Positions 5,464 through 64,000 of a stretch of 64,000 nucleotides of DNA are shown here, one piece after another. The stretch spans positions 119,979 to 183,978 of the forward strand of contig CAVSGU010000007.1 of assembly GCA_963727565.1 (NCBI GenBank), given 5' to 3'. Position 1 is the stretch's first letter. Each line of letters begins with the position of its first letter. The stretch comes from an uncultured Flavobacteriaceae bacterium (GTDB taxonomy: Bacteria; Bacteroidota; Bacteroidia; Flavobacteriales; Flavobacteriaceae). The position numbers and the translations under genes are program-made. The notes beneath the pieces are model-generated. The model had not been told where the DNA came from. It saw only the letters and a program-made list of their open reading frames with translations, and made no database searches.

Positions 5464-5561
5464 TTGTTTAAAATTTGTCCCCAGTTTGAGGAATTAGCTT
5501 CGGGCTTTCAATCATATCCCTGTGGGTTGCCATTTTTGCGTCCAGCATCATGCTGGTTTCA

Positions 5562-6485: not shown

Positions 6486-6488
6486 AGC

Positions 6489-8936
6489 CTATTTTTTTCC
6501 TATTCTTATCACATCGGCAAAAATTCCTGAAGCAGTAACCTCAGCTCCGGCACCGGCGCCTTTTACAATTAAAGGTTGTTCCGGGTAACGTTCGGTGAAG
6601 AATAATACAATATTATCGCTACCGCTTAAATTATAAAACGGATGTTGAGCATCTACCGATTGTAAACCAACCACAGCTTTCCCATTTTCCAATTGTGCTA
6701 CGTATTTGAGTTGCTCACCTTTTTCTTCAGCCGATTTATATATTTCCTGGAATTTTGGTTCGTCTTTCTTCAGTAATTCAAAAAAGTCTTCATTATTGGT
6801 AGTCGCTAAACTTTCTTCTGATAGGAAATCTTCACTTTCAATATCTTCCAATTCCATCTTATGACCGCTTTCACGGGCAAGGATTAGAATTTTTCGAGCT
6901 ACATCTACTCCACTAAGATCAATTTTAGGATCAGGTTCGGTATAGCCTTCTTTCATTGCCATTTCTACTGTTTTATAGAAAGGTTCTTCAGCTTTATACG
7001 TATTAAAAACAAAGTTTAAACTGCCTGAAAGCACCGCCTGGATCTTAGTAATTCTATCTCCGGAAGCCACTAAATTTTTAAGCGTATCTATAATTGGCAA
7101 ACCTGCTCCCACATTGGTTTCATATAAAAATGAAGCTCCATATTCCCTGGCCAGGTTTTGCAGCTCCTGGTAATTCTCAAAACTATCTGCGCAGGCAATT
7201 TTGTTACAGGTCACCACAGAAACCGAATTCGCTAAATATTCTTTATACCAGGCAGAAATTTCTGCACTCGCCGTGTTATCTACAAAAATGCTGTTTCGCA
7301 GGTTAAATGAATCCACTTTTTTAAAGAATTCAGCTTTATCAGCTTTCTCTCCTTTTTCGAGTGCTTTTTCCCAATTTTGGAGATCAATTCCATTTTCATC
7401 AAAAAGCATTTTCCTGGAATTTGAAAGCCCATGTACGCGAACTTTCAACCTTAAATTTTCCAGGAGAAATTTCTCCTGTTTTTTTAATTGATTCAATAGC
7501 TTACTTCCAACATTTCCAACTCCTGTAATAAACAGATTTAGTTCTTTAGATGGTACTTCAAAGAATTGCTCGTGTAAAGTATTCAGTGCTTTCTTTACAT
7601 CCTTTTTTGCGATAACGGCTGAAATATTTCGTTCTGAAGAACCCTGTGCTATTGCACGAATATTAATGTTATTATTTCCTAATGCACTAAACATTTTTCC
7701 GCTTAAACCGTGATGACTTTTCATCCTATCCCCAACCAGCGCAACAATTGCTACATTTTCTTCAATTTCTACCGGTTTAATTTTTTTATACTGAATTTCA
7801 ACCTCAAAAGCTTCATCTAAAGCTTCTTTGGCCAGCTCTGCTTCATCATCCTTTACCGCGATACAAATACTATGTTCTGAAGACGCCTGGGTGATCAATA
7901 CCACGTTGATATTTTCCTGAAAAAGTACTTCAAAAAAGCGCTTGGAAAAACCGGGAATACCAACCATTCCGCTGCCTTCAATATTCAGCAACTTTATAGA
8001 ATCTATATGGGTGATTCCGGTAACCCAACGAAAATTCTTTTCGGAAGACCTGGAAATTAAGGTTCCATCCTCATCGGGTTTAAAGGTGTTTTTAATACGA
8101 ATACTAATTTGTTTATCCAGCAAAGGCTGCAAAGTTGGCGGATAAAGCACTTTAGCTCCAAAATGTGATAATTCCATCGCTTCCTGGTAAGAAATATCCT
8201 TTAGCGGATAAGCGTGCGGCACAATTTGCGGATTTGCCGTATACATTCCATTCACATCTGTGTAAATCAGCACTTCTTTCACATCTAAAGCGGCACCATA
8301 CAAGGCTGCTGTAAAATCTGATCCGCCACGCCCAAGCGTACTGGGAACGCCTTGTTCATTTCTAGAAACAAACCCGGGAGCGATAAACAAAGAAGCGTCT
8401 TTTTCGGCAAAATACTTCTCAATATGAGTATTGGTTAACTGATAATTGACCTGTACTTTTTCGTTGGTGTTTTTACAAACAATCAATTCTCTGGAATCAA
8501 CATATTGAGAATTTACGCCAAGATTTTTAAAATATTCAGCAATAATTAATGAAGACAACACTTCCCCAAATCCAGAAACTACGTGTCGGGTTTTATTAGA
8601 AAGCTCGTTCAGCAGGTAAACTCCTTCGTACAAAGTTTCCAGCCTGTTAAGCTCGGTTTTAACCTTGCTTAAAATACTGCTTTGTGCCTGTACAGGAATT
8701 AATTCTTTTACTGCTTCCAGGTGGCGTTTTTCGTTTTTTACGAGCAATTCTTTATAGGCAAGGTCTTCTTTTGAAGCCAGATCTGCCATTTTCAGCAAAT
8801 CATTTGTCACCCCACCAAAAGCTGAAAAAACAACCAGGGTTTTATCTTCTTTTAAATGTTTCTGAACAGTTTTAGCTACGAGTTTTATTCGTTCTGGAGA
8901 TGCCAAAGAGGTACCTCCGAATTTTAGGACTTTCAT
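6489..8936 (-). CDS. thrA: Bifunctional aspartate kinase / homoserine dehydrogenase I
   Basis: VLKFGGTS, TLGRGGSD, ACT domains, GVGNVG Rossmann motif, YETNVGAGLP, GYTEPDP, GAGAGAEVTA; 815 aa. Confidence 0.97.
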   Translation of the reverse strand: MKVLKFGGTSLASPERIKLVAKTVQKHLKEDKTLVVFSAFGGVTNDLLKMADLASKEDLAYKELLVKNEKRHLEAVKELIPVQAQSSILSKVKTELNRLETLYEGVYLLNELSNKTRHVVSGFGEVLSSLIIAEYFKNLGVNSQYVDSRELIVCKNTNEKVQVNYQLTNTHIEKYFAEKDASLFIAPGFVSRNEQGVPSTLGRGGSDFTAALYGAALDVKEVLIYTDVNGMYTANPQIVPHAYPLKDISYQEAMELSHFGAKVLYPPTLQPLLDKQISIRIKNTFKPDEDGTLISRSSEKNFRWVTGITHIDSIKLLNIEGSGMVGIPGFSKRFFEVLFQENINVVLITQASSEHSICIAVKDDEAELAKEALDEAFEVEIQYKKIKPVEIEENVAIVALVGDRMKSHHGLSGKMFSALGNNNINIRAIAQGSSERNISAVIAKKDVKKALNTLHEQFFEVPSKELNLFITGVGNVGSKLLNQLKKQEKFLLENLRLKVRVHGLSNSRKMLFDENGIDLQNWEKALEKGEKADKAEFFKKVDSFNLRNSIFVDNTASAEISAWYKEYLANSVSVVTCNKIACADSFENYQELQNLAREYGASFLYETNVGAGLPIIDTLKNLVASGDRITKIQAVLSGSLNFVFNTYKAEEPFYKTVEMAMKEGYTEPDPKIDLSGVDVARKILILARESGHKMELEDIESEDFLSEESLATTNNEDFFELLKKDEPKFQEIYKSAEEKGEQLKYVAQLENGKAVVGLQSVDAQHPFYNLSGSDNIVLFFTERYPEQPLIVKGAGAGAEVTASGIFADVIRIGKK

Positions 8937-47748: not shown

Positions 47749-48300
47749 TTAAACTTTATGTTTAATATAGCCATCGCTCCCCTTATCACTTACCACTTTC
47801 CCTGGGTTTCCCAAAACTACACTATTATCGGGAACATCAAAATTAACATAGGATAAAGGTGCAATCAAAACATTATTTCCAATTTTAATTTTTCCCACAA
47901 CTACAGCATTTGCCCCTATCCATACTTCATTTCCAATTATTGGTGAGCCTTTCCTTTTCCCCCTACTCACATTTCCTATTGTAACTGCTTGAGAAATATT
48001 ACAGTTTTTACCAATTGTTGCTCCTTGATTTACATGCATAAGCCCCCAATGATTAAGAAAAAAACCCTCTCCTAATTGAGCCCCCAACTGAATCTGCATT
48101 CCAAATTTTGCTCTAAGCAAACGATACCATATTCTCGAGATGATACCCTAACGGATGCTTAGTGGAATAAGCATTAGCCAATCTATGATTAACCAAAATT
48201 CTAAATTCTGGATGATTAAAAAATACCGATAAAAATCCTGATTTCGAAAAACTGATCTCTACCATAGCGAAGAAGATCACTTTTGATTAAATTGAAACAT
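47749..48300 (-). pseudogene. Serine-O-acetyltransferase-like (CysE/WcaB-type) LbH protein; several indels in the 5' part
   Basis: ATG 48300, then IKSDLLRY and HRLAN in shifted frames; intact part has IGKNCNISQAVTIG, PIIGNEVWIGANA and GNPGK. Confidence 0.75.
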
Positions 48301-48340
48301 TTTGTTTTAAGCATTTTTATCTTTTATTTTGCTATAATTT

Positions 48341-48348
48341 CAAAAGTA
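48341..48348 (-). promoter_or_regulatory. -7 box TACTTTTG upstream of the cysE-like gene
   Basis: Exact TAnnTTTG 40 nt before the ATG. Confidence 0.45.
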
Positions 48349-48603
48349 AGTTAACAAAATGTAATTAAGCAATCAAAATTACTTACGTGCCTAACGATTC
48401 AATAATTCATCCTATTAAACTACAAATTTTCAGAAGGCTTTTCAAACCTAAAATAGCCACTTAATTGGAAACCAAGATAAATTTTATCAAAAATATACAA
48501 TAGTGGTATGACTCAAACTAGAAATTAGTATAATAAAATGTGAAAATTACTTATTTCTGAATTTTAAACACGCAAGCCACCTGAGGCAAAAAACAAACTC
48601 AAA

Positions 48604-48623
48604 CATATTAGAATTCTAATATG
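48604..48623. other. Perfect 20-bp palindrome catattagaattctaatatg (operator or weak terminator)
   Basis: Self-complementary; followed on the minus strand by tttgagtttgtttttt; lies in a 580-bp intergenic gap. Confidence 0.45.
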
Positions 48624-48882
48624 CTATCATCTTACTTTAAGAGAAAATAACAGTGAAGGAAATTTTCACAATAGTTCGAATTGAATTCTCATAATGTTTT
48701 GCCATAAAATAATGCTAAATCACTTAAATCAGATCAATTTAGAATAAGGCTGTTATCAAAAATACTTTTAGAATCTTTCCAAAATAAGTTTTCAAAACTT
48801 TACTTCTAAACTTCATAATAAACCTATTTTCAAACCAAAACCTTCTCTAGCATTATTCGCATGAATTATTCGTTTTTTAGAA

Positions 48883-51112
48883 TTACTCTAAATCATCAAG
48901 AGTATCTGTGATATTTATAAAATCATAAGGATTTTCATAGGTAGAATAAAAAGTTGAATCCTTCTAGAATTTTAAAATCCTCATTAAAAACAGTATTAAA
49001 TACAGCACGAAAAGTATTCACAGAAGAAATATCCGGATACAAATTTTTATTATTACTGCTTGAATTATTTATATAAATAGCATTAAAAATTTCACTCCTT
49101 TCTTTAAGAAATTCCGGACTGGGGTTTTCCATATCATCCTCCAAAAAAGCAGGACCATGATCAGACTGAATAATTATCACACTATTTTCCGATTTATTTA
49201 AAAGCTTCTCTGTTAAGGTTTTTACTTTTTTATTTAAAAATTTCAACTGTCCTAAATAATATTTTTTTTCATCTTTATTCCAGCTATTATCCAGGTTAAC
49301 AGACTTTGGTATTTCTCGGCCGTTTTCATCGAAAACATAAGGTGGATGGGGAGAAACTATATGAGCAAAAACAAATTTGGGATCTTTTATACTATCTAAT
49401 TTTGTTAAATGTTCAAAAGCATATAATATAGTTTTTCGATATTCTTTACCTGCAAAATAACCTACTAATGGTGAAAGTAAAGTAGTGTGCAGAAAATTGG
49501 TGGTGAACTCCCCCATATAGCTTGAATGCTTAAAATTGTAATCGGCATGAATATTTTTTTTGGTACCACCAAAGACACTTCCAAAATGAGCAGTTTTATA
49601 GCCTTTAGCCTTCAAATACTTTATTGCCTTACCATCTAATGCCATTTTATATGGGATACTTCTATTGGCAGATCCCTTTCCTAAAGTATCACCCAAATGG
49701 TTAATATAATCCATATTGAAAGTTGCTCCCAAGGAGAGAAAGGTATTCATATAATTAGACCTACTATTGGGAGCTATATAAAAACCTTTTTCGGTTAAAT
49801 AATTTTCAAAACTACTATTGTCAAAATCAAATTCATCTTTTAATATATCGGAACTGGCATAGCCATCAAGGATTATATAATAAATATCGGGCAAATCTTC
49901 CATACTTGTATTACTCACTTTTGCTGCCTGAAGCTCTTGATTTTCAGCGGTCTTTCTATTATCTATACTAAAAATCAATATTCTAAGTAAGACAATAGAT
50001 AATAAAGTAAAAGACAGGATATTGATTCCGCGTGATACGGGTTTTAAATTCCTTTTGGTTTTTAGGGTAAAATAAATAACCAACGCAGGAACAACGATAA
50101 AAAGTATGCCTAAAATAACAATCACCATCCTATGTGCAAAACCTAAAGCGGTAAACAAATCCCTTAAGTGACCAAACAAAAAGAACAAGGCTAAAGCGGT
50201 AAATACAAATATTTGTGTTTTAAATTTGTCTTTAACCAATAGTTTAATGGCAATAGTAAATGAAAGAGTTAGTACTAAAATTATTATAAGAAGCGAATAT
50301 ATTGACGATTCTGAATTATAAAGTTCTTCAATATTTTCAAAATAAACTGAAAGAAGTGGGAACACCGAAAACATTAAAAGAAAAATAATAAAGCCATTTT
50401 CTTTTAAAATTGGTTTGAGGGTATTTAAAGAACCTGTAAAGTAATTTGACAGTCGCCTATCAATTTCAGTAGATTCTATCTTTAATAGCAACCAGTTTTT
50501 ACCAATAGCGAACACATTGTTCATAGTCCAGAACAATACCAAGGCTGCAGAAAGATTATACAATAATACCAGGAATATAAGGGCTATTATTACTAATTGC
50601 ACTTTTTCACTTTTGTCTTTTCCTTTAGTGTAGAAATAAGAAGCTATTAAATTGACAAAAGTCATTAAAAAGGGCAATACATTTATCGCCAATCCTCCCA
50701 GCAAAATTAAACCATCGGGTTCAGATAGGTCACGAATAGGCCCAAAGGAAACCCCTTCTACCGGGGCATAATCTAAAAGTAAATAATAAGCTGCGAGAAA
50801 AAATGGAATTTGAATCAATAAGCCTATCAATCCGGTTAAAGAGTAAAACGGACTATAATTATGCTTGCGGTAAATTTCTCTTGTATAAAAATATTTTTCC
50901 TGTTTATTTTGAACATTCTTAATAGCATCAAGAGCAGGTTGCATCCTGTCTTTTCTGGCTTTTTCCAGGGCTTGTATCTTATCTGCTATCCAGAATAAAG
51001 GCAGCATTAGTATTTGCGTAGTTAAGCTTAAAAGGATTATAGACCAGCCATAACTATTCGTAATCCCATAGAAAAACTCCAATATGCTTTCAAGAAAGTT
51101 TACTAAGAACAT
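48883..51112 (-). CDS. Fusion: YidC/Oxa1-like membrane domain + TM linker + alkaline-phosphatase/sulfatase-fold (LtaS/EptA-like) domain; +1 indel near 48960
   Basis: YidC-like motifs YGWSIILLS..LPL, MQP, IQIPFF, DLSEPD, VLP, LVLFWTMNN. Sulfatase-fold motifs DIYYIILDGY, NYMNTFLS, HIVSPHPPY, QSDHG. Corrected frame ends DSTFYSTYENPYDF...LE. Confidence 0.8.
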
Positions 51113-51114
51113 TG

Positions 51115-52308
51115 TTATATTTCTTTAAATATTGATAGAATCTGTTGCGCTGCCACTTTTCCCGCGTGCTGAAAATTAAAAATATGTTTATCTATAATTT
51201 CCGGGGTTATTTTTTCATTGGATACCTTTTCGACAATAATATGAATATTGGCAATTTCTTTTTCTGAAATGGTACGGCCAAAATCTTCCAGTAAATATTT
51301 TGTGGAAGGAGGATTCTCAATATCAGATGACTCATAACCACCATCATCCCATTCAAAATCTACCGCTATAATTGGTATTTTTTGTAAAAATGCTACATCA
51401 TAGATCATTCCCGAGGTTGTATCGGTGATTAGGGCTTTGGCTTTAGAAAGGGCATGAACATTATCTACCCGTTTATCTATTTCAAAAAGATCATTCTTCT
51501 CAAATTTTGAGGTAATGGAAGCCAAGAGTTCTTTTTCTGATATCCAGGACTGCGGATGGGGCCTGTATAAAACATGATGTCCGTTTTCTATTAAATTCCC
51601 AATTAGAACTTCAGCATTACGCGGAAAAAAAGATCTATCGCCCCAGGTAGGTGCAACTAAAACATGTTCTTTAAGTTCCCCGTTTTGCGATTCTTTAGTA
51701 TCAAAATACGTGCAACCTGTTTTCATCAATTCTTTACGCTTACTTTTCCTATCGCGTTCCAATTGTCTAAGGTTAGTAATATGATATTCATTACCGCAAA
51801 GTACAGAATCATAATAATCGAATGAAAATTTCTTATTTGCGTGAACATCCATAGGAGCGTGTGCCAGATAGCAATAGTGTTCTACATTTTTTGAACGCTT
51901 CCAACTTAAAATATCCAATTGGGGAGTGGTGGTCACACACATCTTAGCCTTTAATTTGTTCAACACAAAAAAAGATTGGGTGGTATTACCAAGGTAGTGG
52001 GCCGAACAATATTCAGATTCAAGTTCTAAGCCGGGATCTTCCTTATCTGCCGTTAAATAGACAAATTTTTGCTTTCTTTTTATCAATTCTTGTAGCACAG
52101 GTTTAAAAACATTCCAGTAATTTTTTCCTTCACTAAAAAAAACCAGTTCCCCTGAAAAATCATTTGTGCCCTTATATTCTTTCCCTGCAAAAAAATGCAT
52201 CACTTTGTAGTAGGAATTTCGTATAGTAAAAGTAAGCGTCATTATAAAGCCTATTAAAATACTAATTAACAAACTTCCGGTACCGGGGTCGATATAAAGA
52301 AAAAACAT
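51115..52308 (-). CDS. CDP-glycerol:glycerophosphotransferase (TagF/TagB)-like phosphotransferase
   Basis: LVAPTWG (cf. LYAPTWR), YRPHP, LITDTTSGMIYD (cf. LITDYSS); N-terminal membrane anchor after YIDPGTGS. Confidence 0.75.
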   Translation of the reverse strand: MFFLYIDPGTGSLLISILIGFIMTLTFTIRNSYYKVMHFFAGKEYKGTNDFSGELVFFSEGKNYWNVFKPVLQELIKRKQKFVYLTADKEDPGLELESEYCSAHYLGNTTQSFFVLNKLKAKMCVTTTPQLDILSWKRSKNVEHYCYLAHAPMDVHANKKFSFDYYDSVLCGNEYHITNLRQLERDRKSKRKELMKTGCTYFDTKESQNGELKEHVLVAPTWGDRSFFPRNAEVLIGNLIENGHHVLYRPHPQSWISEKELLASITSKFEKNDLFEIDKRVDNVHALSKAKALITDTTSGMIYDVAFLQKIPIIAVDFEWDDGGYESSDIENPPSTKYLLEDFGRTISEKEIANIHIIVEKVSNEKITPEIIDKHIFNFQHAGKVAAQQILSIFKEI

Positions 52309-52310
52309 AG

Positions 52311-53021
52311 TTATTTTTTTAGGGATAAAATTCCAATGTTTTTAAGAATTGGATGGATAATATAATATTCTAAACTACTGTCATTAACAGGAAAGGGTTT
52401 TATTTCTTTTTTATTGCTTATAGCATTTAAAGCATTTACCAAACAATTAGCTCTAATTATATTATCGTAATATTGATCAATATTTACCCCTTTGGTGGGA
52501 GCATTATAGTGGGTTTTGGTTATTATATTTCCGGCGTCAATTTTTTCATTCATAAAAAATGCGGTTACCGTACAGGAATTTCTATTCAATATACTGTAAT
52601 ACAGCGTTGTGCTTCCACGTTCCGCAGGAATATCGCCTGGATGCATATGTATATAAGGTATCTCTAAATCAAAATGGTCTTTTTTAAGAATCTGGCCTCC
52701 ATAACCGCAAAAGATGACTAAATCTGGCGCAATTTCTTTAACTTGATCTACTACCTTTTTAGAATTTACATCAAATTCTTCAAGGTGCTTATAATTCCAT
52801 TTGTTACTTTTAAAAACAGTCTCAATTTCCTTTTCTAAATTGGGAAGAAATAAATTATTATCGGCAAAAAACTGTTCCGTTTCGTGGTTCAATTCAGGTG
52901 CCTTATATTCTTTTTCATCAAATCCATAAAATAAACCTTCTACTTCATAAGAATTTGAAGCTAAAGCTTGCGCGTAAGCATTAGACCTTAGGGTGTTTCC
53001 TGCGAGAAGCAAAATCTTCAT
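52311..53021 (-). CDS. Formyltransferase-family protein (N10-formyl-THF-dependent fold)
   Basis: DLVIFCGYGGQIL, HMHPGDIPAERG and MNEKIDAG motifs; no C-terminal FMT_C domain. Confidence 0.75.
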   Translation of the reverse strand: MKILLLAGNTLRSNAYAQALASNSYEVEGLFYGFDEKEYKAPELNHETEQFFADNNLFLPNLEKEIETVFKSNKWNYKHLEEFDVNSKKVVDQVKEIAPDLVIFCGYGGQILKKDHFDLEIPYIHMHPGDIPAERGSTTLYYSILNRNSCTVTAFFMNEKIDAGNIITKTHYNAPTKGVNIDQYYDNIIRANCLVNALNAISNKKEIKPFPVNDSSLEYYIIHPILKNIGILSLKK

Positions 53022-53592
53022 AAATCAACGTTTTTATTTTCACACAACTCGGTAATAATTCTATTTTCTTCCTTTATCAAATTAATTGCGGCCCCATAAT
53101 GAAAAAGTTCTTTTTCATCCTTTAACTCAAATATTCTACTGCAAACAATATCAACCACTTTTAAGAGCGAATTTAAGTACTGTAGATGTTTATATTTATT
53201 GTAAAGTTTTACCAGTACGAATCCAAAGTTGATATAAAGATTTAAATTATCGCGTTTTATATCTCTATTTACCCGGCGATAATCTTTATCGTACACTTCA
53301 TAAATCCTTTTAGTGACTTCAAACCTCTTTATTAATAAATGCACCTTATCTACTTCAGAAAAAACGGAATCAGTAGCTAACCATTTTTTAAATTCAAGAT
53401 TTGTTGTGGAATTATCTGTTATCTCATAACATAAATTATCATTTGCTAAAAGAATAGCTATACAAGCTTGCCTTTTTTCTTTCCAGGAATTGAGAAATTC
53501 CAGTCCACCAAACTTTGAATAGGAATAGTTTATTTTATTGTTAAAAACGTCCTTATTAAAATAAGTATAGTTATTTTATTTTCTCCAATCAT
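53018..53592 (-). CDS. Hypothetical protein (about 190 aa) of the phosphoramidate cassette; probable 1-bp deletion near 53575
   Basis: Frame is open from 53575 to 53018 (77 codons upstream of the track's GTG). ATG 53592 overlaps the upstream gene end and joins the frame if one A is added. Contains YSYSKFGGLEFLNSW, IKRFEVTKRIY and YLNSLLKVVD. Confidence 0.65.
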
Positions 53593-54325
53593 GAGACCAA
53601 TTCTTATCTTCTTTCAACTTTGTTTCATAAACTTTTACATCCTCGTTGGAATCGACTTCGCACCATTTGCCCTCAATAAATGCAATTTTAACATCAGTCT
53701 TTTCCATAAGCAGGGATAAAAATGAAGTCATATCCATTTTATCCTGTTCATCTTTTTCTAAAGCGTTAAAGATTTGAAAAGCCAACTCCCAGCCTTTTGG
53801 AGAAAACTTCAGCAAACCCATAAATTGAGCTTCAATATGCTCCATTTTATTTTCGTCTTTTCCTATCTCGGTCAAAACATTTCCGTTCGCTTTAAAACTT
53901 TCAGCATCATCCAGTGGATCTTCAAAGCGCGCAGACCAGAGCTTGAACCATTCTTTGTCTGCGGTAATAACGATATCACCTTCCTGATCCTTCAATTTTT
54001 GAATATGTTCATCAGAATATACTATATCTGAGTAAGAAACAATGGTATCAATTTCAATTTTAGGGGCACAAAAAAATGTTGCAACCATATTTGTTTCAGA
54101 CCATCTCGGATTTTCTGCTGTTTTAAAATCCCCCTGTAATAGTTCTGACCTATAACCTCTAACTACCGTTATATCTTCTATACCGGCTCCCCTCAAAGCA
54201 GAAAGTTGCCAATCTAATAATCTCTTACCCTTTAGCATGGTTAAACATTTATGAGATCTCTCGGTTGTACTACCCATTCGAGATCCACGTCCGGCTGCCA
54301 GTATTAATCCTTTATAATTACTCAT
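53576..54325 (-). CDS. NTP transferase; CTP:phosphoglutamine cytidylyltransferase-like (Cj1416/LicC/PntC family)
   Basis: ILAAGRGSRM, TNMVATFFCA, SYSDIVY, LWSARFEDPLDDAE, IEAQFMGLLKFS, MTSFL, WCEVD, matching Cj1416 as I recall it. Confidence 0.8.
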   Translation of the reverse strand: MSNYKGLILAAGRGSRMGSTTERSHKCLTMLKGKRLLDWQLSALRGAGIEDITVVRGYRSELLQGDFKTAENPRWSETNMVATFFCAPKIEIDTIVSYSDIVYSDEHIQKLKDQEGDIVITADKEWFKLWSARFEDPLDDAESFKANGNVLTEIGKDENKMEHIEAQFMGLLKFSPKGWELAFQIFNALEKDEQDKMDMTSFLSLLMEKTDVKIAFIEGKWCEVDSNEDVKVYETKLKEDKNWSHDWRK

Positions 54326-54938
54326 ATCTAAATAAATTTTTTATTATTTTTCCCTCCCATTCACTAAATTCTTCTTCCCTTTCGGGGTGCCACATCAATC
54401 CAAGTATTTTATTTCCCTGGTATGCTTCAATGCTATTGTCACGTTTGCACCTACCTATAATTTTCAGTGCATCTGGTTTAGTCTCATCAATTAACGTGTT
54501 GGAATGGTAAGAGTTAACTTCTTTAATTTCCTCATTTATAATTATTTGATGCCGGGTTGCTACGTGGAATGAGGAAAAACTATCTTCCCCTCTTTCAACT
54601 TCGCCTCCCAACCATTTATAGATGGCTTGAAACCCCCTACAAACACCTAATACCGGTAAAGAATGAGCTTGAGAATATTGAAAAATCAACTTTTCAGTAT
54701 TATCCCTTTCTTCAGAAACACTAAGATTTTCTCCGCCAGTAAGTATAAATGCGTTTAAATTCCAATTTCTAATATAATTATCAATGTCACTCTCAATATT
54801 TGGTAAGAGTATCCAATTAGCATTTGGCATAATTTCTTTCATATACCTATACCAATCCCGTGCTATAGAGTCCCGCTTTTCGTCATAATCAACCGCATTC
54901 GTTTCTCTCATACTTATTCCAATATTGAGTTTTTCCAT
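54318..54938 (-). CDS. Class I glutamine amidotransferase / peptidase C26; gamma-glutamyl-CDP-amidate hydrolase-like (Cj1417)
   Basis: EKRDSIARDW, ILTGG, LGVCRG (Cys nucleophile), NSYH, MWHPER (His-Glu). Confidence 0.8.
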   Translation of the reverse strand: MEKLNIGISMRETNAVDYDEKRDSIARDWYRYMKEIMPNANWILLPNIESDIDNYIRNWNLNAFILTGGENLSVSEERDNTEKLIFQYSQAHSLPVLGVCRGFQAIYKWLGGEVERGEDSFSSFHVATRHQIIINEEIKEVNSYHSNTLIDETKPDALKIIGRCKRDNSIEAYQGNKILGLMWHPEREEEFSEWEGKIIKNLFRYE

Positions 54939-54946
54939 AAGCTATA

Positions 54947-57311
54947 TTATATCGTAAATGGCTCTAAACGTTTTCCCTGGCAGTTCAATAATACTTTGCC
55001 TGCCTTTATTACCTTATTAAAAGGTTGCTCCCCGCAGCCTATTGCTGCAGGTAAATCATATTCGGCACAACGTATCGCCATATGGGAATTTGCTCCCCCG
55101 AACTTCGTTATAAGACCAGCTATTTTTCTGGAAAAAATCCAATCATAGCCTGGATCTGCTCCTTCTATACATATAATCTTACCTTCCAAATCAGGGATTT
55201 CTTTGATGAAAGGGTTCAGAAATACTATTTTCCCTTCAACTCTTTTGTTTCCAATAAAATTAGGTGCACTCCTTTGCATCGGTGCAATATATACATCTCT
55301 TCGAGAACGTATTAAGTAGTTTAGTTTAAATGAATTTGCCACATTATAAGATTTCTTTGCTTTTTTTATTCTGCGTTTAAAAAAAACTTTCAAATCCTTG
55401 GTAATTGGTTCAAATAGCACACTTCGAACATCATCTAAAGTAAGCATCGCTAAATCTTTTTTAGAAAAACCAATTAAATCACCCCATTCGGTAATATATT
55501 CTATAATCGCAGACAGATGTTTAGTGAATATAAATTTTTGATATTCCCTACCCTTTATAGCCTTTGATGCATATTCAAAAATATCATCTGCATTGATCCT
55601 GTCAAACCCGTGATCTTTCAATAGAATATTTAAATTTTCACGTTCTTTTTCACTTAATTGAAATACTTCATGCTCACCCGGTTTTTGAGGATCACCATCT
55701 AATAAATCAGGTCTATTTTTGTAACACGGCGATAAAATATCATAACTGTTTGGTCTAAGATGACCATATTTCTGCATGAATTTTTCTTTATCTAATTTAT
55801 CATTACATACCTCATAAAAGTCATTACTCAATTCTGTAGAAATAGTTTTTACACTTCTTTTAAAAGACTTCACCCTATCTTCCTCGATAGCTCCACACGC
55901 AATTGCTGATCTTAATAATGATTCTGCTATAAAACCATGCCTGGCGGTTATCGAAAAAGGTATTGTTCCATACTTTACGCATTGGTTTTTAAGCGTATTG
56001 ATATGATCTGAAATTGAAAAAGGAGTAACTAATTCTTTATTTAAATTTTCCTCCTGCAATTCTTTTAATAATTCTATTTGTGCAATAGCCTTATTTAATG
56101 TATTATCTTCTGTATTCTCTATAGCATTTTGAGTCAATTCTACTAAACAGCTCTTAAATTCAATTATTTCCTCCTTAGAAAGCAAATCGGGATATCTTTC
56201 CTTGAGATTTTCTTCAAATTTAAAATCATAAGCAGTAGGAACTACTTCAAATTCTATTTTATCGTGTAAATGAGGGTTGGTTTCCAGCCTTTCGATATAA
56301 GCATTAATAAGCTTCTCAGAAATTTCCGGACTTAGCTTTTCAGGTAGAAAAGAGTTCATACTATTACGTACATCTATATAGGCCCTACCAAATAAAGAAA
56401 CCATTAGTTCTACATCTGGCATTCTTTTATAACCCATTTCTTCCCTTGCCAAACTCCAGGCTCTTTTTGTAATTAGCTCCCGATATAAAGACATTGCAAG
56501 AGGGTGAGGTACCACACCAATCATTTCTGCAGGATTCCAATCGGGCATTATACCAAGCAGGGTTTTGTTACCATAAATATCAACCCTCCTGGTCATCAAT
56601 TGCTGCACAAAATCCTCAAGATAAGGAAGCCTTTCAGAAACTAATTTATTTGCTTTATTCTTCCAATTTTCAGAAGTAGTAATCGGCCTTACCTGCAGTA
56701 TAAAAACTTCATTCTTCTTATTTAATGCAAATTCAATGTCTAAAGGTAAATCCTTATAAAAAGCCTCCAATTCCCCTACCACTTTTAGAACCTTTAATAG
56801 ATAAGGAGAATCAAAATCTTCATCTTTAAAACCGTTATAGATATAAACCGTTTTATTAATGGAATTCCCACTTGTTACCGTATCTGTTTTACCTGTTGTA
56901 TCGTCAAAATTAATGACGTAGTATGGTGAGCCATCATCAAGAGACTTAGTCATTATAACCCCGCTCATTCTTACATCCTCCACCATAGGCTGTATCAAGA
57001 CTTGATTCTCAGGATTGTTATCAAAAGAATTAATTACAGTATCGATAGCTCTAGCCAGGTCATCTCTATTTTTAACATTAACATTTAAAACACTTTCAAA
57101 AGCTCCTGCCATAGAATCCACCTCTGTATCTTCTGCCATAGAACTGCTTCGAACGGCTAAATATGTGAAACTTTCATATTTTCTGGAAATGTTAGTAATA
57201 ACTTTATCTTTTAAATCATTCCATTCTTGTACCGTAAAAAAATGAACATCGGGTACGGGAAATCCATTTTCAGATATATATCTGTAGCGTTTCAGCTTTT
57301 GTTCCTAGCAT
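54947..57311 (-). CDS. PEP-utilising/PPDK-like enzyme; L-glutamine kinase-like (Cj1418); +1 indel near 57265
   Basis: Reconstructed N-terminus MLGTKAETL...AVRSSSMAEDTEVDSMAGAF (ATP-grasp), ILQVRPI, DWNPAEMIG, YGHLRP, and a C-terminal phospho-His domain GGANSHMAIRCAE; about 787 aa. Confidence 0.82.
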
Positions 57312-57334
57312 AGTATATTTTATCTTAAAGCGAG

Positions 57335-57342
57335 CAAAAATA
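57335..57342 (-). promoter_or_regulatory. -7 box TATTTTTG directly upstream of the phosphoramidate cassette
   Basis: Exact TAnnTTTG 23 nt before ATG 57311. Confidence 0.45.
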
Positions 57343-57499
57343 TTGGTATTTATTAAAAATAAGGTAAAGTAAATTGCGAAAACTTAGTTAAAAATAAATC
57401 GAGAAGCTTTGACGGTCAATTCTCAAATAATTCCGAATGAAAACATACAATACACTTATTAAAAATTAATAATATTTATTCTGGTTGAATCCAATTGCT

Positions 57500-58441
57500 T
57501 CAAAAAAGTAAAGTAACTTGATAATTATAATATAATTCTTTTCGAATAAAATTAGCCTCAGGGATAGCTATGCATAAATATCGGTTTTTGCTCTTAAATA
57601 ACATAAATTACCCAATACCGAACTGTAAAAAGAGACAACGGTTTTTGGAAAAACGTTACTATTAAGATACTCTTCCTCAAAGATGCTATTAAAATTCTTT
57701 ATTTCAAAGAATTCAGCAATTTTCTCAATAATATCTTTGGTTTCTCTTGGATGAGGAACATATAAAAATTTTTTATTTGGAAATTTTTCTTCAATCTATG
57801 TAAACATTTTAAATAAAATTCACTCGAGACAATATCCAGTTGTACTAAAGGTTGCCCTACAAAAATAACTTTAGAATCATCCAATTTAGGATGCTCTTAT
57901 TGTTTTCTTTTTTAAAGTTTTGAAAGTATCGTTAGATCAACATGAAGGGAGAAGGGACCAACAAAATTTAAAGATTCTATTTTGGGTTGTTTAAATTTTA
58001 ACTTTATAAAAAAACACGGTAAGTTCCTAACTTCTACATTATTATTCTTTCTATTATGGGCTACTGAAATTAACTGCATCCCATCATATAAAAGAAAAAT
58101 TTTACTGTTTTTTTCATATTCTCCAACTATACTTAAATGATAAAAATTACTATAGCTCCCCATATAAACATTCTGAAAAGTTTTAAATTTTCTTTTAAAT
58201 TGAAATAACCAGACTCTAAAGAAAAGAATTTTAGAAAATTCAAGTATGTCATTATTTCTAGCCACATAAACTATTGAAGTATATTCAAATTCAAATCCTC
58301 GAAGATATTAAGTATTTTTGAAGCAATTGTTTTATTAGGCACGGTTAAAACAACAACTGCATTTTCTAAAAGTTCGGGAGCTTTGGAAAAAAAAAAAGCC
58401 TGTGAAGGAGTGGATAATACAAATAGATTTTGTTTAGACAT
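57500..58441 (-). pseudogene. Putative nonulosonate (sialyl/pseudaminyl) transferase, several indels; 3' end approximate
   Basis: ATG 58441 gives MSKQNLFVLSTPSQ. Fragments carry LLYDG (D/E-D/E-G-like), FVGQP, YVPHPRE (HP) and SFYSSV (SS/T), the bacterial sialyltransferase motif order. Confidence 0.6.
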
Positions 58442-58517
58442 AGAGTTGTAAATTGATACTGCAATTTATTTCAGTATAAAATTGGGAAAAGTTAATTTTA
58501 CGCAAACTACTTAGGCA

Positions 58518-59778
58518 TTAGACTACATTCTTATCCGGTGTATGTAAGGCATGATAGATAATGTAAAACATACTTAAAGTGGATATTATTTCTGCCATTA
58601 AAGCTCCTAAAAAAATAAAATTGAGTTTTTGATTTGCAGGCGCCAGAAAATAAAACCTAAGCGGAGACAGAATATATAGAATATTTGTAATTATAGAGAT
58701 TTTAAGCTGTGCCGCGTAATCTTTTAGGGTATTTAAAACCTGAAAGATAAGGGCATACATTCTAAAAAATCCAATTACCACAGCAATCATAGTAATTGTT
58801 ATGGCTTCCTCGTATTTAGGAAAAAAATTCTGTATAGCATAGGGAATAAAGAATAAAGATAGTAATGCAAGACTCCCAAAACCGGTAAGATAAATCGATA
58901 ATTTTCTGTATTTTTTTCCATAATCTCTTTTTATCGCCGGTTTTTCCATAATCAAAAGTTAAACTCGGGAACATATACTTTGCTAGTGCTCCAGGTAAAA
59001 TACCAAAGGCCATCATAGCGGCATTAGCCGGTGCGGTTAAACCTAAAGCAGTAGTAGATAAGAAAAAAACAATTATTAGCCTCGGGTACGTATCCGGGAA
59101 TATTGTTTTAAAAAATTAAAACATAACATGGGAAAACCTATTTTAAGATTTTCAAAATAAGTAGCTTTAATAAAAGTTGATTTTACTTTAATTGGTCTAA
59201 ATACTACGAGCAAAACAGTAGAGAAAATACTATGAATCAGCAAGAGGAGCAAATATCCTAAAAATTCATAAAAGAAAATTAAGAGGAATTAAGGCAACTC
59301 CTACAATAGAGGATATAACATACACCTTTGATAAATCCTTAAAACTTTTTGAGGACCTATAGGTAGAAGATAAATAATTATCTACAAACATGGTAGAGAT
59401 AAAAACTCCTGCCGTAAGATATACCAAAATTTCCTCGGTGCCATCTGCAATAAATATCGCCATAAGTACAGCAATTAATAAAAATATTACTGTATACCAG
59501 ATGGTTACAAATTGTGCAGTAGATGCATATTCCTTAACCTTCGCCATTTTATCCTGCCCCATGTAAAATGGTAATTGTCTCCCTAAGCCCTGGGTAAGGC
59601 CTAATTGTAAAAAACCTATATATGGTTTAACAATTAAGGCGGCCTGCCAAAGCCCTAACTTTTCTGGTCCGATAACTTTTATAGCTATTAAACTCATGGC
59701 CATTGCTGCAAAAGTTTTAAATAAAGAACTGGCAGTAAAACCTACTACTACTTTAGAACCTTTTAATGATTTAATCAT
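58518..59778 (-). pseudogene. Wzx-like oligosaccharide flippase, split by indels (track ORFs 59266-59961, 58816-59016, 58518-58955)
   Basis: ATG 59778 preferred. GPEKLGLWQ, LQLGLTQGLGRQLP and many TM helices; total length about 420 codons. Confidence 0.7.
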
Positions 59779-60098
59779 GCAGCTATTAATAAGAAAAGTT
59801 TGGGATGAATTGCATAATAAATTGACAGATATTATAGAAAAAAACTTAATTAGACTTAATAAATAATTTAATCTTTTACAGAATTGCAGCTTAGAGTTAT
59901 ATCTTTTGTAAATCCCCTTAGTTTCCGTAAGATCTCTGTGAAGACTGGAGATTCGTATCAATAACCATCCATAGCTACCTACATTTTTGAATTATTACTT
60001 TCACTACTTTAATATTTGTTGAAACGGATAAAGTTTCTACCCTTCTCCTGCAGCTTTATTGGGAAAAATTACCGCATATTATTTTAGTTGATATAAAT

Positions 60099-60809
60099 TT
60101 ATTGGATTATTCTTACAATGCAAAAAGCTTCGGCAAATCGCTTTCCGGTAACCACTCCCCACCGTTGGGCCTGGATTTTCAATGCGTCCGGAGATCTTGG
60201 GTGTGGATATGCCCTTTTTTCATATTCGTAACTTTCCATTCCATCTATTTTAGCATTTAAGTTTTCCTCAGAAATTTCTATAAACATATTTGGTATAAAA
60301 TGTTTTGGATCTGTTGCCGCTCTCCATTCAGTACCTGAAGGTGTTTCAAAAGATATTAAAGTATTTACTTTTTCATCTTTAAGAGGTCGGGTAGCAGTAA
60401 GAACTGCTTCGAAAGTTTTTTGATGGTCAATATTTACATCACCAAGATGATGAGTGAATATAACTTCAGGAGCAAAATCTTCTTTTTCCTTTTCTACCAC
60501 TTTAATAATATCCAGCAAAGCCACTGTATCAAATCGATTATCTGGAAAATCATAAATACCTACGGACTCGTAGCCTATAATCTTTTGGGCACTTTCGATA
60601 TTATTTCTATGGACCTGAAGTTCTTTTTTCCAAACTTCGGGATTTCTTTCTTTAGCTCTAGAGGTAATACCTTCACCTAATATAACCGCCCTAACTTTAC
60701 ATCCATAATCTTTTATCAGTTTATGCATTGAAGCTCCAAGCCCCAAAAGTTCATCATCGGGATGTGCTACTACAACTAAAATTTTTTTATTTCTTAGTGA
60801 TTCTAACAT
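60099..60809 (-). CDS. PIG-L/LmbE-family de-N-acetylase
   Basis: VVAHPDDELLG, FPDNRFD, THHLGDVNIDHQ. Confidence 0.9.
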   Translation of the reverse strand: MLESLRNKKILVVVAHPDDELLGLGASMHKLIKDYGCKVRAVILGEGITSRAKERNPEVWKKELQVHRNNIESAQKIIGYESVGIYDFPDNRFDTVALLDIIKVVEKEKEDFAPEVIFTHHLGDVNIDHQKTFEAVLTATRPLKDEKVNTLISFETPSGTEWRAATDPKHFIPNMFIEISEENLNAKIDGMESYEYEKRAYPHPRSPDALKIQAQRWGVVTGKRFAEAFCIVRIIQ

Positions 60810-61461
60810 CTGCTAGTATTTCTTTTTCTGATTTTAAGGAAGCCCTCGTAAATTCAAATTTAAAATTTTCAGTTTCGATAAACGCCGAGGGATACCCCTC
60901 ACAATCGAGCATTCTTATATAATTAAAGATTAGTTCTAATTCCTTCAAATCTTCCAAATTACCATCTCGTGGCTTTCTCCGCTTGAATTCAACAACTTCA
61001 CCTTTCTGAGGAATTGGTAATAAATTCTTTTCTATGATCTCTACAATCATCTTTTCTATCACACTCTTACTCCTCAAAAAAATCTCTTTTGCTGTTCCAT
61101 GTAAACTAAGAGATTTTTTTAAATAAACTGGTCCAGTATCCAAACCATCTCCTACCTTAAGTGCTGAAATTTTAGTCTCATTTTGATTTCTAACGATTAA
61201 ATTTTGGAGCGGGCTCCCTCCTCTTCCGTAGGGCAAGTCCGTCATATGAAATACTATACAATTAAATTTGGTAAATATCTCTTCTGGAATTATATGAGAC
61301 CAATGAGGAATAAAAATTGAGTTCGGTTTTATCTTATTCAAATTTGAAACGGAAAATTCTTCCTTACTAGAAAGTCGTATCCAATTCTCCCCTGGTCTTT
61401 CTGATAGTTCATCAAAAAGCGCATCATGCCAAGATTTATTAGTTAATAGTATATAAGTCAT
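60787..61461 (-). CDS. Sugar N-formyltransferase (Fmt-like)
   Basis: FIPHWSHIIP, FHMTDLPYGRGGSPLQNLI, GLDTGPVY. Confidence 0.82.
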   Translation of the reverse strand: MTYILLTNKSWHDALFDELSERPGENWIRLSSKEEFSVSNLNKIKPNSIFIPHWSHIIPEEIFTKFNCIVFHMTDLPYGRGGSPLQNLIVRNQNETKISALKVGDGLDTGPVYLKKSLSLHGTAKEIFLRSKSVIEKMIVEIIEKNLLPIPQKGEVVEFKRRKPRDGNLEDLKELELIFNYIRMLDCEGYPSAFIETENFKFEFTRASLKSEKEILADVRITKK

Positions 61462-61471
61462 TGGTTTATAC

Positions 61472-62530
61472 TTATAATATATCCCAAGTTAAAGGGGTAC
61501 CTTTTTTGAAATTATCGGTAGCACGTCTCCCTAAAACGCGCTCATAGTATTTTGGTTCCATTCCATCACCAGGACGAATAATTCTTACATTTTCACTTGT
61601 AAAAGCTTCCCCTTCTTTAATATCCTCAACTATATAAAGGGATCTTTTGAATCTCAAGCTAGACTTTTCTTTCTCTTGTATATCATATTGAACTTTCCCC
61701 AATGCTTTCCAGGCTCTTTCGCTCTCAATAACTAAGGCCTTAAGCTCATGAGGCTCTATGGAAAAGGCCGAATCTACCCCCCCATCTGCCTTATTCACGA
61801 TGAAATGTTTTTCAATAATTCGTGCACCCAAGGCAACCGAAGCTACTGCAGCACCAATTCCTCCAGTATGATCTGAAAGTCCTGTAAAACAATCAAACAT
61901 TTCTCGCATATGCGGAATTGTTCGCAAATTTGTGCTTTCAGCTCCAGCAGGATATGTACTGGTACACTTCAAAAGCACTAAATTTTTACATCCATGATTT
62001 CTCAAAACACTTACCGATTCAGCTATATCACTCAATTTCGACGCTCCAGTTGACATAATAACAGGTTTACCTGTAGAAGCTACCTTTTTTAGTAGTGGCC
62101 AATCTTTATTTTCAAAAGACGCAATTTTATATACATCTACATTAAGCTCCTCCAAAAAATCCACAGATGTACTATCAAATGGAGTACTAAAAGGAATCAT
62201 TCCTTTTTCTCTGGCTCGTTCAAAAATGGGCTTATGCCATTCCCAAGGTGTATAAGCAATTTTGTACAATTCATGGAGCGTTTTACCGTGCCATAGTGAG
62301 TCAGGATCATCGATATAAAACAAACCTTTGTCGTGAGGAATAGTCATCGTATCTGCCGTATAGGTTTGAAGTTTCAAACCATGAGCACCAGCCTCTGCTG
62401 CTGCATCCACTATTTCCAAGGCTTTATCTAAACTCTGATTATGATTTCCGGACATTTCAGCAATCACAAATGGTTTTTGATCATCTCCTATTATATGTTT
62501 TCCAATTTTAAAGCTTTCAATCATTTTCAA
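61472..62530 (-). CDS. pseI: Pseudaminic acid synthase (NeuB family with SAF domain)
   Basis: IAEMSGNHNQSL, KLQTYTADTMTI, KIASFE, GLSDHT, IEKHF, RSLYIVEDIKEGE. Confidence 0.88.
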   Translation of the reverse strand: MKMIESFKIGKHIIGDDQKPFVIAEMSGNHNQSLDKALEIVDAAAEAGAHGLKLQTYTADTMTIPHDKGLFYIDDPDSLWHGKTLHELYKIAYTPWEWHKPIFERAREKGMIPFSTPFDSTSVDFLEELNVDVYKIASFENKDWPLLKKVASTGKPVIMSTGASKLSDIAESVSVLRNHGCKNLVLLKCTSTYPAGAESTNLRTIPHMREMFDCFTGLSDHTGGIGAAVASVALGARIIEKHFIVNKADGGVDSAFSIEPHELKALVIESERAWKALGKVQYDIQEKEKSSLRFKRSLYIVEDIKEGEAFTSENVRIIRPGDGMEPKYYERVLGRRATDNFKKGTPLTWDIL

Positions 62531-63149
62531 AAATTTTTATAGTATATTTTTTATTCCTAAAATTAAAATAAGCCGGATATCTTTCATTATCGCATACCCT
62601 CATTAATTCAAATTGATCTGCAATAGTTTTAAAAGGATCTAACTCACTATCTTTAGGAGTTCTTTTAGGATAAAAAGAGGATTCTCCTTCTTGATCCTTG
62701 CCCTTATTATTCGGAAATTTTTCAACAAAGTCTAATATAAGATCTAGAGTAGCTAAACCTTGTTTGTGTTTTATTTCCGGCAAAAGTTCTGTTCCAGTCA
62801 ATTCGATAATCTTTTGACCATAAATTGTTCCGGCATCGAGTTGCTCTACGGCCTCAAAAAGGGTAACTGGAATTCTGTTTTTCCCTTCTAATATTTGCCA
62901 TGTTAATGGAGACCAACCCTTACCCTCTGGTAAATCACTCTCGTGTACTACCAAATTATGCCTATTTAAATCTAACTTTTTAAAAATTCTTTCGCAGCCC
63001 AATAGACACAATACGTCACCACTTACAACCTGATTGTGATGAGTGATTAATCGGCTTTCGTGTTCTAATTCTTTAAGCTTTTCCACCAATTTCTCAGCAT
63101 ATGGTATTAACCAAGACCCTGGATTGTCAACTAAAACCTGAATTACCAT
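62517..63149 (-). CDS. Second formyltransferase-family protein of the Pse module
   Basis: VVHESDLPEGKGWSPLTWQI, QLDAG, RVCDNERYPA. Confidence 0.8.
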   Translation of the reverse strand: MVIQVLVDNPGSWLIPYAEKLVEKLKELEHESRLITHHNQVVSGDVLCLLGCERIFKKLDLNRHNLVVHESDLPEGKGWSPLTWQILEGKNRIPVTLFEAVEQLDAGTIYGQKIIELTGTELLPEIKHKQGLATLDLILDFVEKFPNNKGKDQEGESSFYPKRTPKDSELDPFKTIADQFELMRVCDNERYPAYFNFRNKKYTIKIFEND

Positions 63150-63158
63150 AAACTACTA

Positions 63159-63722
63159 TTAAATTTTAAATTGAGATATTTTAGAGTGAATAACAACATC
63201 AATAAACTTTCCATCAAATAAACAATGATCTTTTAAAGTAGCATCATGGAAAAAATCGTTCTTCTCTAAAGTTACATATAACTTAGGTCTTAAGTCAAAT
63301 GCATATACGTACAATTTGTGAAATTTAAGGTCTCTAAAGGCTAGCTCTTCCAACATTTCCAAGTATTTACTCCAATACAAATCAAAAAAATCCTTTTCTA
63401 ATTCTGTATTTATAACAAATGAAACTTCAGCATTTTTATCAATCCAATTAATATGTACGAGACCTCCATATGCTACGCAAGTTTTTCCTTCCATGAAGGA
63501 AAAGAGTATTTGATCAGGCTGATCCTTCTCAAATAAATCAGCTATAACTTCGAAAAAATATTTATCTTGCTTTTCTTTAGTAAGAGGTTCGTTTTGCCGT
63601 AAATGATAAATTTGTTCATTACGCCAATTCATAATTTCGTAACGATCTTCTAACCGAAGAGGTACCAGAGAATATTCTCCTACTGTAAATTCTTGGTTTT
63701 TAAGAGTTTTGTAATTATTCAT
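63159..63722 (-). CDS. GNAT N-acetyltransferase, PseH-like
   Basis: RimL-type GNAT (EIMNWRNE, AYGGLVHINW, FHKLY); located in the pse cluster. Confidence 0.65.
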   Translation of the reverse strand: MNNYKTLKNQEFTVGEYSLVPLRLEDRYEIMNWRNEQIYHLRQNEPLTKEKQDKYFFEVIADLFEKDQPDQILFSFMEGKTCVAYGGLVHINWIDKNAEVSFVINTELEKDFFDLYWSKYLEMLEELAFRDLKFHKLYVYAFDLRPKLYVTLEKNDFFHDATLKDHCLFDGKFIDVVIHSKISQFKI

Positions 63723-64000
63723 TTATTATTATTTAAAAAAGAGGATAGCCTACTAAAGTCATATTTTTCAAGCAAAGGACCTATTGCCTCTATTTCTTCA
63801 ATTAATGATTTATAAACGGTTTTTTGAAAATTTGATTTGTTAACCTCGAAAATCCAACTATAATTTTCTTTACAATATCTAACCAGATCCATACCTATCG
63901 GTATTTTGTATTTATCAGCAATCGAAAAGACGGCCGATAACACTAAATAATCGGAGGGGTAATCTATAGTCAAACGAAGCTTTTTAAAATTTTCATCTTC
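63719..64000 (-). CDS. C-terminal part of an SpsF/PseF-like cytidylyltransferase; 5'-truncated by window
   Basis: Frame is open from 64000: EDENFKKLRLTIDYPSDY (RLTxDxxxD motif of SpsF/KdsB-like CTP transferases). Confidence 0.65.
   Translation of the reverse strand, partial: EDENFKKLRLTIDYPSDYLVLSAVFSIADKYKIPIGMDLVRYCKENYSWIFEVNKSNFQKTVYKSLIEEIEAIGPLLEKYDFSRLSSFLNNNK

Follow-up and report, generated by a model that had tools for sequence, protein, structure and literature searches.

In this work, we analyzed a stretch of 64,000 nucleotides (nt) from an uncultured Flavobacteriaceae bacterium (assembly GCA_963727565.1, contig CAVSGU010000007.1, positions 119,979 to 183,978 of the forward strand; the whole stretch is referred to here as the window), and specifically three adjacent genes encoding homologues of Cj1418, Cj1417 and Cj1416 from Campylobacter jejuni: a kinase, a hydrolase and a cytidylyltransferase (Table 1). 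In Campylobacter, the pathway to the donor for O-methyl phosphoramidate (MeOPN) runs from glutamine through phosphoglutamine and cytidine diphosphate (CDP)-glutamine to cytidine diphosphoramidate (CDP-amidate) plus glutamate (PMC11800397, PMC6429109). An initial annotation, made from the letters of the window alone, had placed the three genes between 53576 and 57311 in the order known from Campylobacter, and both the open reading frames (ORFs) and a direct comparison with the C. jejuni locus bear this out. The trio stands at the head of an operon of seven genes, which are packed on the minus strand from 57311 to 48935 with intergenic spacings of -17 to +8 nt; the plus-strand ORFs at the trio region are short. 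The -7-like box upstream of the ATG at 57311 agrees with this ATG being the native start of the kinase, but is weak evidence. Rfam gave zero matches within 48000-60500, and a sigma-70 promoter scan returned the same counts as in shuffled sequence. The locus has a GC content of 29-35%, and the first part of the window one of 35-38%.

Table 1 Features of the locus, in positions of the window
Feature	Position	Strand	Remarks
Trio span	57311-53576	-	Order kinase, hydrolase, cytidylyltransferase; tightly packed on one strand
-7-like promoter box	57335..57342	-	TATTTTTG; fits TAnnTTTG, the Bacteroidota -7 consensus; lies 23 nt upstream of ATG 57311; AT-rich context, weak
Native start of the kinase	57270..57311	-	ATG 57311, 13 codons (MLGTKAETLQIYI), TGA
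Cj1418-type L-glutamine kinase (predicted), main open frame	54947..57304	-	785 codons; 730 amino acids (aa) from ATG 57139, the first canonical start
Cj1417-type class-I glutamine-amidotransferase-fold hydrolase (predicted)	54318..54938	-	206 aa; Pfam, NCBIfam, BLASTP
Cj1416-type CTP:phosphoglutamine cytidylyltransferase homologue	53576..54325	-	249 aa; NTP_transf_3 (Pfam); 8-nt overlap with the hydrolase gene
All-helical protein (predicted)	53018..53592	-	191 aa; 1-base deletion at ~53572 (codon 7); residual ORF from GTG 53344, 108 aa
Formyl_trans_N-only protein	52311..53021	-	236 aa; Pfam; optional cassette member
Divergent TagF-like (PF04464) GT-B CDP-phosphotransferase (putative)	51115..52308	-	397 aa; candidate user of the CDP-linked product of the trio
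YidC/Oxa1-like domain, polytopic linker and sulfatase/LtaS-EptA-type domain	48935..51112	-	725 aa, against 746-747 aa in relatives
Hexapeptide acetyltransferase	47749-48314	-	Frameshifts at ~48251 and ~48148; 123 aa, against 187 aa in L008
Decayed polysialyltransferase-like (PF07388) glycosyltransferase	57400..58441	-	Three frames; L008 version intact, 330 aa
Wzx-like flippase	58518..59961	-	Broken by stops and a frameshift

The motifs quoted in the initial annotation (GGANSHMAIR in the kinase; EKRDSIARDW, GVCRG and WHPER in the hydrolase; TNMVATFFCA and LWSARFEDPLDDAE in the cytidylyltransferase) were all found in the translations. Its proposal that the first enzyme is of the Cj1418 type, and not a phosphoenolpyruvate (PEP) synthase, held up against curated models: the kinase scored 921.5 bits on NCBIfam NF004508/PRK05849 (EC 2.7.3.13; cut-off 501), a model on which the proteins of C. 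jejuni, C. coli and C. volucris reach 1106-1153 bits and which had no match above the cut-off in any of 14 named control genomes, a set without Campylobacter. By Pfam, the protein consists of a PPDK_N ATP-grasp domain, a family-specific middle region and a mobile PEP-utilizers swivel domain that carries the catalytic histidine within a GGANSHMAIR motif identical to that of Campylobacter. No Pfam match to the PEP-utilizers_C barrel was obtained, as expected from the missing pyruvate-binding barrel that had been remarked on before.

The genes could also be read as an ordinary PEP synthase, pyruvate, phosphate dikinase (PPDK) or rifampicin phosphotransferase (Rph) accompanied by an unrelated amidotransferase of the GMP-synthase type and by LicC or a nucleotidyltransferase for sugar phosphates, given that they have domains of these families (PPDK_N, PEP-utilizers, GATase, NTP_transferase) and that some homologues are named "pyruvate, phosphate dikinase" by NCBI. 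The kinase has the ATP-grasp nucleotide domain in common with PEP synthase, PPDK and Rph, as well as the swivel domain with its phospho-histidine; it differs from them in lacking the PEP/pyruvate TIM barrel and in its central region, and the PEP synthase and Rph models gave at most 62 bits, against cut-offs of 598-1700. Searches of PDB sequences found no solved homologue of Cj1416-1418 and matched generic domains only, namely the swivel domain of PEP synthase, subunit A of GMP synthase and the LicC N-terminus; PDB PEP synthases aligned with just the ~80-residue swivel domain, and the LicC alignment was limited to residues 4-62. With the reciprocal orthology to Campylobacter described below added to these partial matches and model scores, a set of ordinary enzymes is rejected as a very improbable explanation. 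PEP synthase, Rph and LicC, which the initial annotation had named as the best matches that would contradict it, did not turn out to be the best matches.

As a reference we used a C. jejuni MeOPN locus (L136), taken from Campylobacter genomes that were found through an exact 16S rRNA word and then searched with NF004508; its nature was verified by NF058596 (699 bits), NF004508 (1119 bits) and NF045546 (322 bits), plus a methyltransferase. The likeness to Campylobacter, which the initial annotation had put forward without an alignment, was measured by aligning this locus directly in BLASTP and is far above chance, with 37% identity over 743 aa for the kinase (E 5e-146), 30% over 198 aa for the hydrolase (E 2e-22) and 36% over 250 aa, the full length, for the cytidylyltransferase (E 1e-50). 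Furthermore, (i) all three proteins are reciprocal best hits between the window genome and Campylobacter, (ii) the C. jejuni proteins find this locus first in the whole genome of the window, as the sole strong match, (iii) in four Campylobacter genomes the matches of the window hydrolase and cytidylyltransferase adjoin the Cj1418 homologue, the runner-up scoring 20 bits (against 146-164 bits for the best cytidylyltransferase match), and (iv) the gene order is identical, for example at 4486-6807, 6816-7367 and 7406-8152 of the Campylobacter contig G002:C62.

The hydrolase belongs to Pfam Peptidase_C26/GATase, and its Cys100 (in GVCRG) and His184/Glu186 (in WHPER) are conserved. Among the NCBIfam models, NF045546, gamma-glutamyl-CDP-amidate hydrolase, fits it best (92.3 bits, E 4e-26), with an E-value 11 orders of magnitude ahead of the others. 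For the Cj1416 family, which has no curated model, the assignment was judged by full-length similarity and the reciprocal best hit; the window and Campylobacter cytidylyltransferases have the motifs NMVxTxFCA and DPLxDAE in common. Catalytic residues and family-specific motifs are kept across the window, other Bacteroidota and Campylobacter. On these sequence comparisons, the trio is orthologous to C. jejuni Cj1418, Cj1417 and Cj1416, which supports the interpretation given in the initial annotation; its observation as a whole is partly confirmed, given that the 787-aa open frame described for the kinase is not one frame, as detailed below.

The locus therefore resembles the Campylobacter donor pathway in its three enzyme families, their order and domain architecture, the catalytic histidine, the Cys-His-Glu triad and its siting in a surface-polysaccharide locus. 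It differs in that identities are down to 30-37% and in that the window kinase falls in a clade of its own: in the kinase tree, the window clade and the Campylobacter clade (support 100/100 each) and a clade of fusion proteins are separate, with the deep nodes unresolved. The window genome also lacks the Cj1415 3'-kinase, the Cj1419/1420-type methyltransferase and the DUF2972 (Cj1421/1422) transferase of the Campylobacter MeOPN system. A whole-genome search with PF01583 for the 3'-kinase returned P-loop noise (22 bits), tblastn of the C. jejuni homologue against the whole genome gave a best E of 0.018, and neither the DUF2972/NF058596 MeOPN transferase nor a Cj1419-like methyltransferase had a genome-wide tblastn match at E<=1e-3. 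In the C. jejuni-labelled genome (L136 7310-9196; G003:C115), priA follows the Cj1416 homologue, and a different contig holds the gene with the adenosine 5'-phosphosulfate (APS)-kinase fold; such a gene lies ~3.5 kb or less from the trio in G002, G004 and G005.

In place of the Campylobacter partners, the window trio is followed by genes for a 191-aa protein, a formyltransferase-like protein, a TagF-like protein and a YidC-sulfatase fusion. The 397-aa TagF-like protein begins (52194-52308, minus strand) with MFFLYIDPGTGSLLIS, which contains the motif YIDPGTGS and is followed by a transmembrane helix, so that the motif is fused to the transferase; Y5, I6, D7, P8, G9, G11, S12 and L13 hardly vary among 20 homologues. 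Pfam gave no match for the window protein, and 11 of 20 homologues match PF04464 (best E 1.3e-9), and an 80%-identical homologue is named "CDP-glycerol glycerophosphotransferase family protein" by NCBI. Its AlphaFold2 model (pLDDT 86.5) predicts an N-terminal transmembrane helix and a GT-B glycosyltransferase body, for which the top PDB fold match is TagF (3l7k, E 1e-9), with generic GT-B enzymes scoring similarly; the family profile had no match among PDB sequences, and the protein is unrelated to the Campylobacter DUF2972 transferase (hhalign probability 0.2). It would be like the TagF/TarF CDP-glycerol glycerophosphotransferases (PF04464; PDB 3L7K) in its predicted GT-B fold, its predicted membrane association and the expected use of a CDP-linked donor with release of CMP, and unlike them in its very divergent sequence, the added YIDPGTGS motif and transmembrane helix, the diderm host and the presumed donor, which would be CDP-amidate. 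No CDP-glycerol synthase was seen among the annotated genes of the window.

Of the other partners, the YidC-like domain of the fusion has YidC as its best PDB sequence matches (E ~1e-9). The 191-aa protein is predicted to be all-helical (AlphaFold2, pLDDT 86), with nothing better than E 0.6 in a fold search of the PDB. The Formyl_trans_N protein has YIHMHPGD where formyltransferases usually carry NxH. We sampled the conservation of the cassette in six Flavobacteriia/Cytophagia loci: the TagF-like gene adjoins the trio in all six and is followed downstream by the YidC-sulfatase fusion in four, and a gene for a ~190-aa protein comes after the cytidylyltransferase in five. Wherever a Formyl_trans_N protein is present, it comes after this ~190-aa protein (four loci); in Marivirga (L153 13403-14266), an S-adenosylmethionine (SAM) methyltransferase holds that position.

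On a wider scale, the kinase behaves as a patchy accessory module: the NF004508 cut-off is exceeded in 6 of 401 sampled Bacteroidota genomes (5 of 179 genera), and the kinase is found in one of 22 species of the genus to which the window belongs. The kinase family itself comprises 1555 clusters at 50% identity (E<=1e-30); IMG labels many homologues "glutamine kinase", and NCBI calls them PPDK-like. Marine Bacteroidota metagenomes are rich in the cassette, with thousands of homologues found. Other Bacteroidota versions of the trio were examined in five loci (L148-L152; 18 kb fetched), in which the same kinase, hydrolase and cytidylyltransferase families recur, with no hydrolase in the fetched region of L152. 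Unlike the window, three of them (L148 12372-15479, L149 12615-15737 and L150 12365-15511) have an N-terminal nucleotidyltransferase-like domain fused to the kinase (1035-1048 aa), a separate cytidylyltransferase gene also being present; many of the best representative kinase matches are ~1000-1050 aa long. In L151, which belongs to another Bacteroidota family, a Cj1415-like gene of the APS-kinase fold (6238-6765; 43% identity to C. jejuni, NF004041 174 bits) stands directly after the glutamine-kinase homologue, and some Bacteroidota therefore hold all four enzymes of the Campylobacter donor pathway. Genes for the 397-aa TagF-like protein and the YidC-sulfatase fusion were not found within the 18 kb of L148-L152. 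Among cultured relatives, examples of intact orthologues are the kinase homologues of Psychroflexus sp. CAK57W and Brumimicrobium oceani and the TagF-like homologue of Christiangramia gaetbulicola.

The copy of the kinase gene in the window is frameshifted. Its span, 57311-54947, is 2365 bases (3n+1); from the ATG at 57311 the frame reads MLGTKAETLQIYI and stops, and the long frame does not open until 57304, so that the 787-aa reading of the initial annotation had crossed a +1 frameshift. As a reference for this and other frameshifts we used the closest relative, which is 96% identical and intact at 787 aa (P0001, metagenome contig L008) and whose N-terminus is MLGTKAETLQNISENGF. In the DNA alignment, the window has CAGATATATATCTG where L008 has CAGAATATATCTG, that is, one surplus base at ~57280, which shifts the frame after codon 10 and leads to a stop after codon 13. 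MLGTKAETLQ is thereby split off the remaining 785 codons, with loss of the N-terminal TKAxxL, part of an xTKAxxL motif conserved family-wide, Campylobacter included. The site itself is a perfect 14-nt palindrome (CAGATATATATCTG, ~57275-57288), with a 13-nt counterpart in L008 (CAGAATATATCTG). A programmed frameshift or phase variation was considered and rejected: at this (AT)4 run the change is +1 and not the slip of a repeat unit, and nothing supports a switch.

Damage is not confined to the kinase, and the cassette could be a dead remnant in this organism, with the kinase gene and several of its neighbours as true pseudogenes and no product made. Besides the +1 at codon 11 of the kinase, with its loss of TKAxxL, there is a -1 at codon 7 of the 191-aa gene, the frame of the acetyltransferase is shifted at ~codon 20 relative to L008, a +1 at ~48961 (~codon 720) alters the last ~25 residues of the YidC-sulfatase protein, and the polysialyltransferase-like glycosyltransferase and the Wzx flippase are split across several frames; the presence of the kinase in a single species of its genus would fit as well. 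The share of sequence covered by ORFs of at least 150 aa is 0.26 in 57312-60000 and 0.88-0.92 elsewhere in the window, and the low value being restricted to that segment, the damage is local and does not reflect a genome-wide error rate. On the other side, the frame-breaking indels of the four conserved genes lie at the very ends of these genes, the gene bodies are 95-99% identical to L008 and free of internal stops, which is unexpected in old pseudogenes, the 191-aa protein is intact in P0242, apparently from a near-identical genome, and assembly errors may be the cause of such indels. Either the pathway is switched off or decaying here, or the local assembly is in error; we give the remnant a substantial chance, somewhat short of even. 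Being frameshifted, the window copy is a poor choice for experiments.

Taken together, these results point towards an orthologous trio that, in its intact form, would make CDP-amidate at the head of a seven-gene operon and would hand it to the TagF-like enzyme for transfer, the window copy being frameshifted. We consider this reading probable, with ample room for doubt. By orthology, we infer three steps: the kinase would convert glutamine and ATP into phosphoglutamine through the phospho-histidine of GGANSHMAIR on its swivelling domain, the cytidylyltransferase would join phosphoglutamine and CTP to CDP-L-glutamine, and the Cys-His-Glu hydrolase would release glutamate, leaving CDP-amidate. 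The TagF-like enzyme would then move the phosphoramidate from CDP-amidate to a glycan or lipid acceptor with release of CMP. Gene neighbourhood and fold suggest that it most likely uses CDP-amidate directly, which would make a 3'-kinase unnecessary. The YidC-sulfatase fusion, the 190-aa protein and the formyltransferase-like protein probably act later.

Several observations weigh against this reading. First, the 92.3 bits of the hydrolase are below the equivalog cut-off of NF045546 (250), where the C. jejuni protein reaches 321.9. In addition, substrate specificity could have drifted at 30-37% identity, and Cj1416 is reported to be promiscuous with Mn2+, accepting other phospho-acids in vitro (PMC12275187). 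Besides, the part given to the TagF-like enzyme comes from neighbourhood and from a fold that generic GT-B enzymes match with similar scores, no phosphoramidate from any Bacteroidota glycan was found in the searchable literature, and the kinase as assembled, being devoid of the conserved TKAxxL, may leave the window copy making nothing.

Some of these points would also suit a homologous trio that makes another CDP-activated head group, such as CDP-glutamine or a phospho-X compound, for the TagF-like enzyme to install as a phosphodiester-linked substituent. The distance to the characterised enzymes, the sub-threshold hydrolase score, the well-supported separation of the window kinases from the Campylobacter clade and the in vitro tolerance of Cj1416 are all compatible with it, as is the fact that TagF-family enzymes normally transfer phospho-alcohols. 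Nevertheless, very distant lineages, among them that of the Bacteroidota locus L151 with its Cj1415-like kinase, keep the three enzymes together and their order unchanged; the retained Cys-His-Glu triad of the hydrolase is easy to explain only if glutamate is removed to give the amidate; and the cassette has no conserved enzyme that would form an alternative substrate. A different head group thus appears distinctly unlikely, and CDP-amidate remains the product that we favour.

Building on CDP-amidate as the donor, it is tempting to speculate on a second route of phosphorus-nitrogen (P-N) decoration of the diderm envelope, free of 3'-phosphorylation and common in marine Flavobacteriia. In such a route, the TagF-like enzyme, anchored by its YIDPGTGS helix, would load phosphoramidate from CDP-amidate onto a membrane-bound acceptor, the fusion of a YidC-like domain with an LtaS-EptA-type periplasmic phosphotransferase would relay the group to the final surface polymer, and the 190-aa protein with its formyltransferase-like partner (in Marivirga, the SAM methyltransferase) would set N-formyl versus O-methyl. 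We regard this scheme as a long shot.

As of a 2019 review, glycan-linked O-methyl phosphoramidate had been identified only in Campylobacter (PMC6429109); clusters resembling Cj1416-1418 outside this genus were already remarked on in a Borg preprint, and our literature search found no paper on the cassette in Bacteroidota. Judging by gene content and similarity, the donor-making trio known from Campylobacter is here part of a distinct, unstudied marine Bacteroidota cassette. The instance in the window is neither unique nor obviously functional, but the class it belongs to is testable. If the proposed reading is true, surface chemistry of the P-N kind would occur widely in the ocean, the TagF-like enzyme would have a new class of donor and it would be clear that the step of Cj1415 is dispensable; the modification could also influence the recognition of Flavobacteria by phages and grazers. 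Finally, upstream of the decayed flippase, at 60099-64000, there are genes for a PIG-L deacetylase and a formyltransferase (Formyl_trans_N plus C_2).

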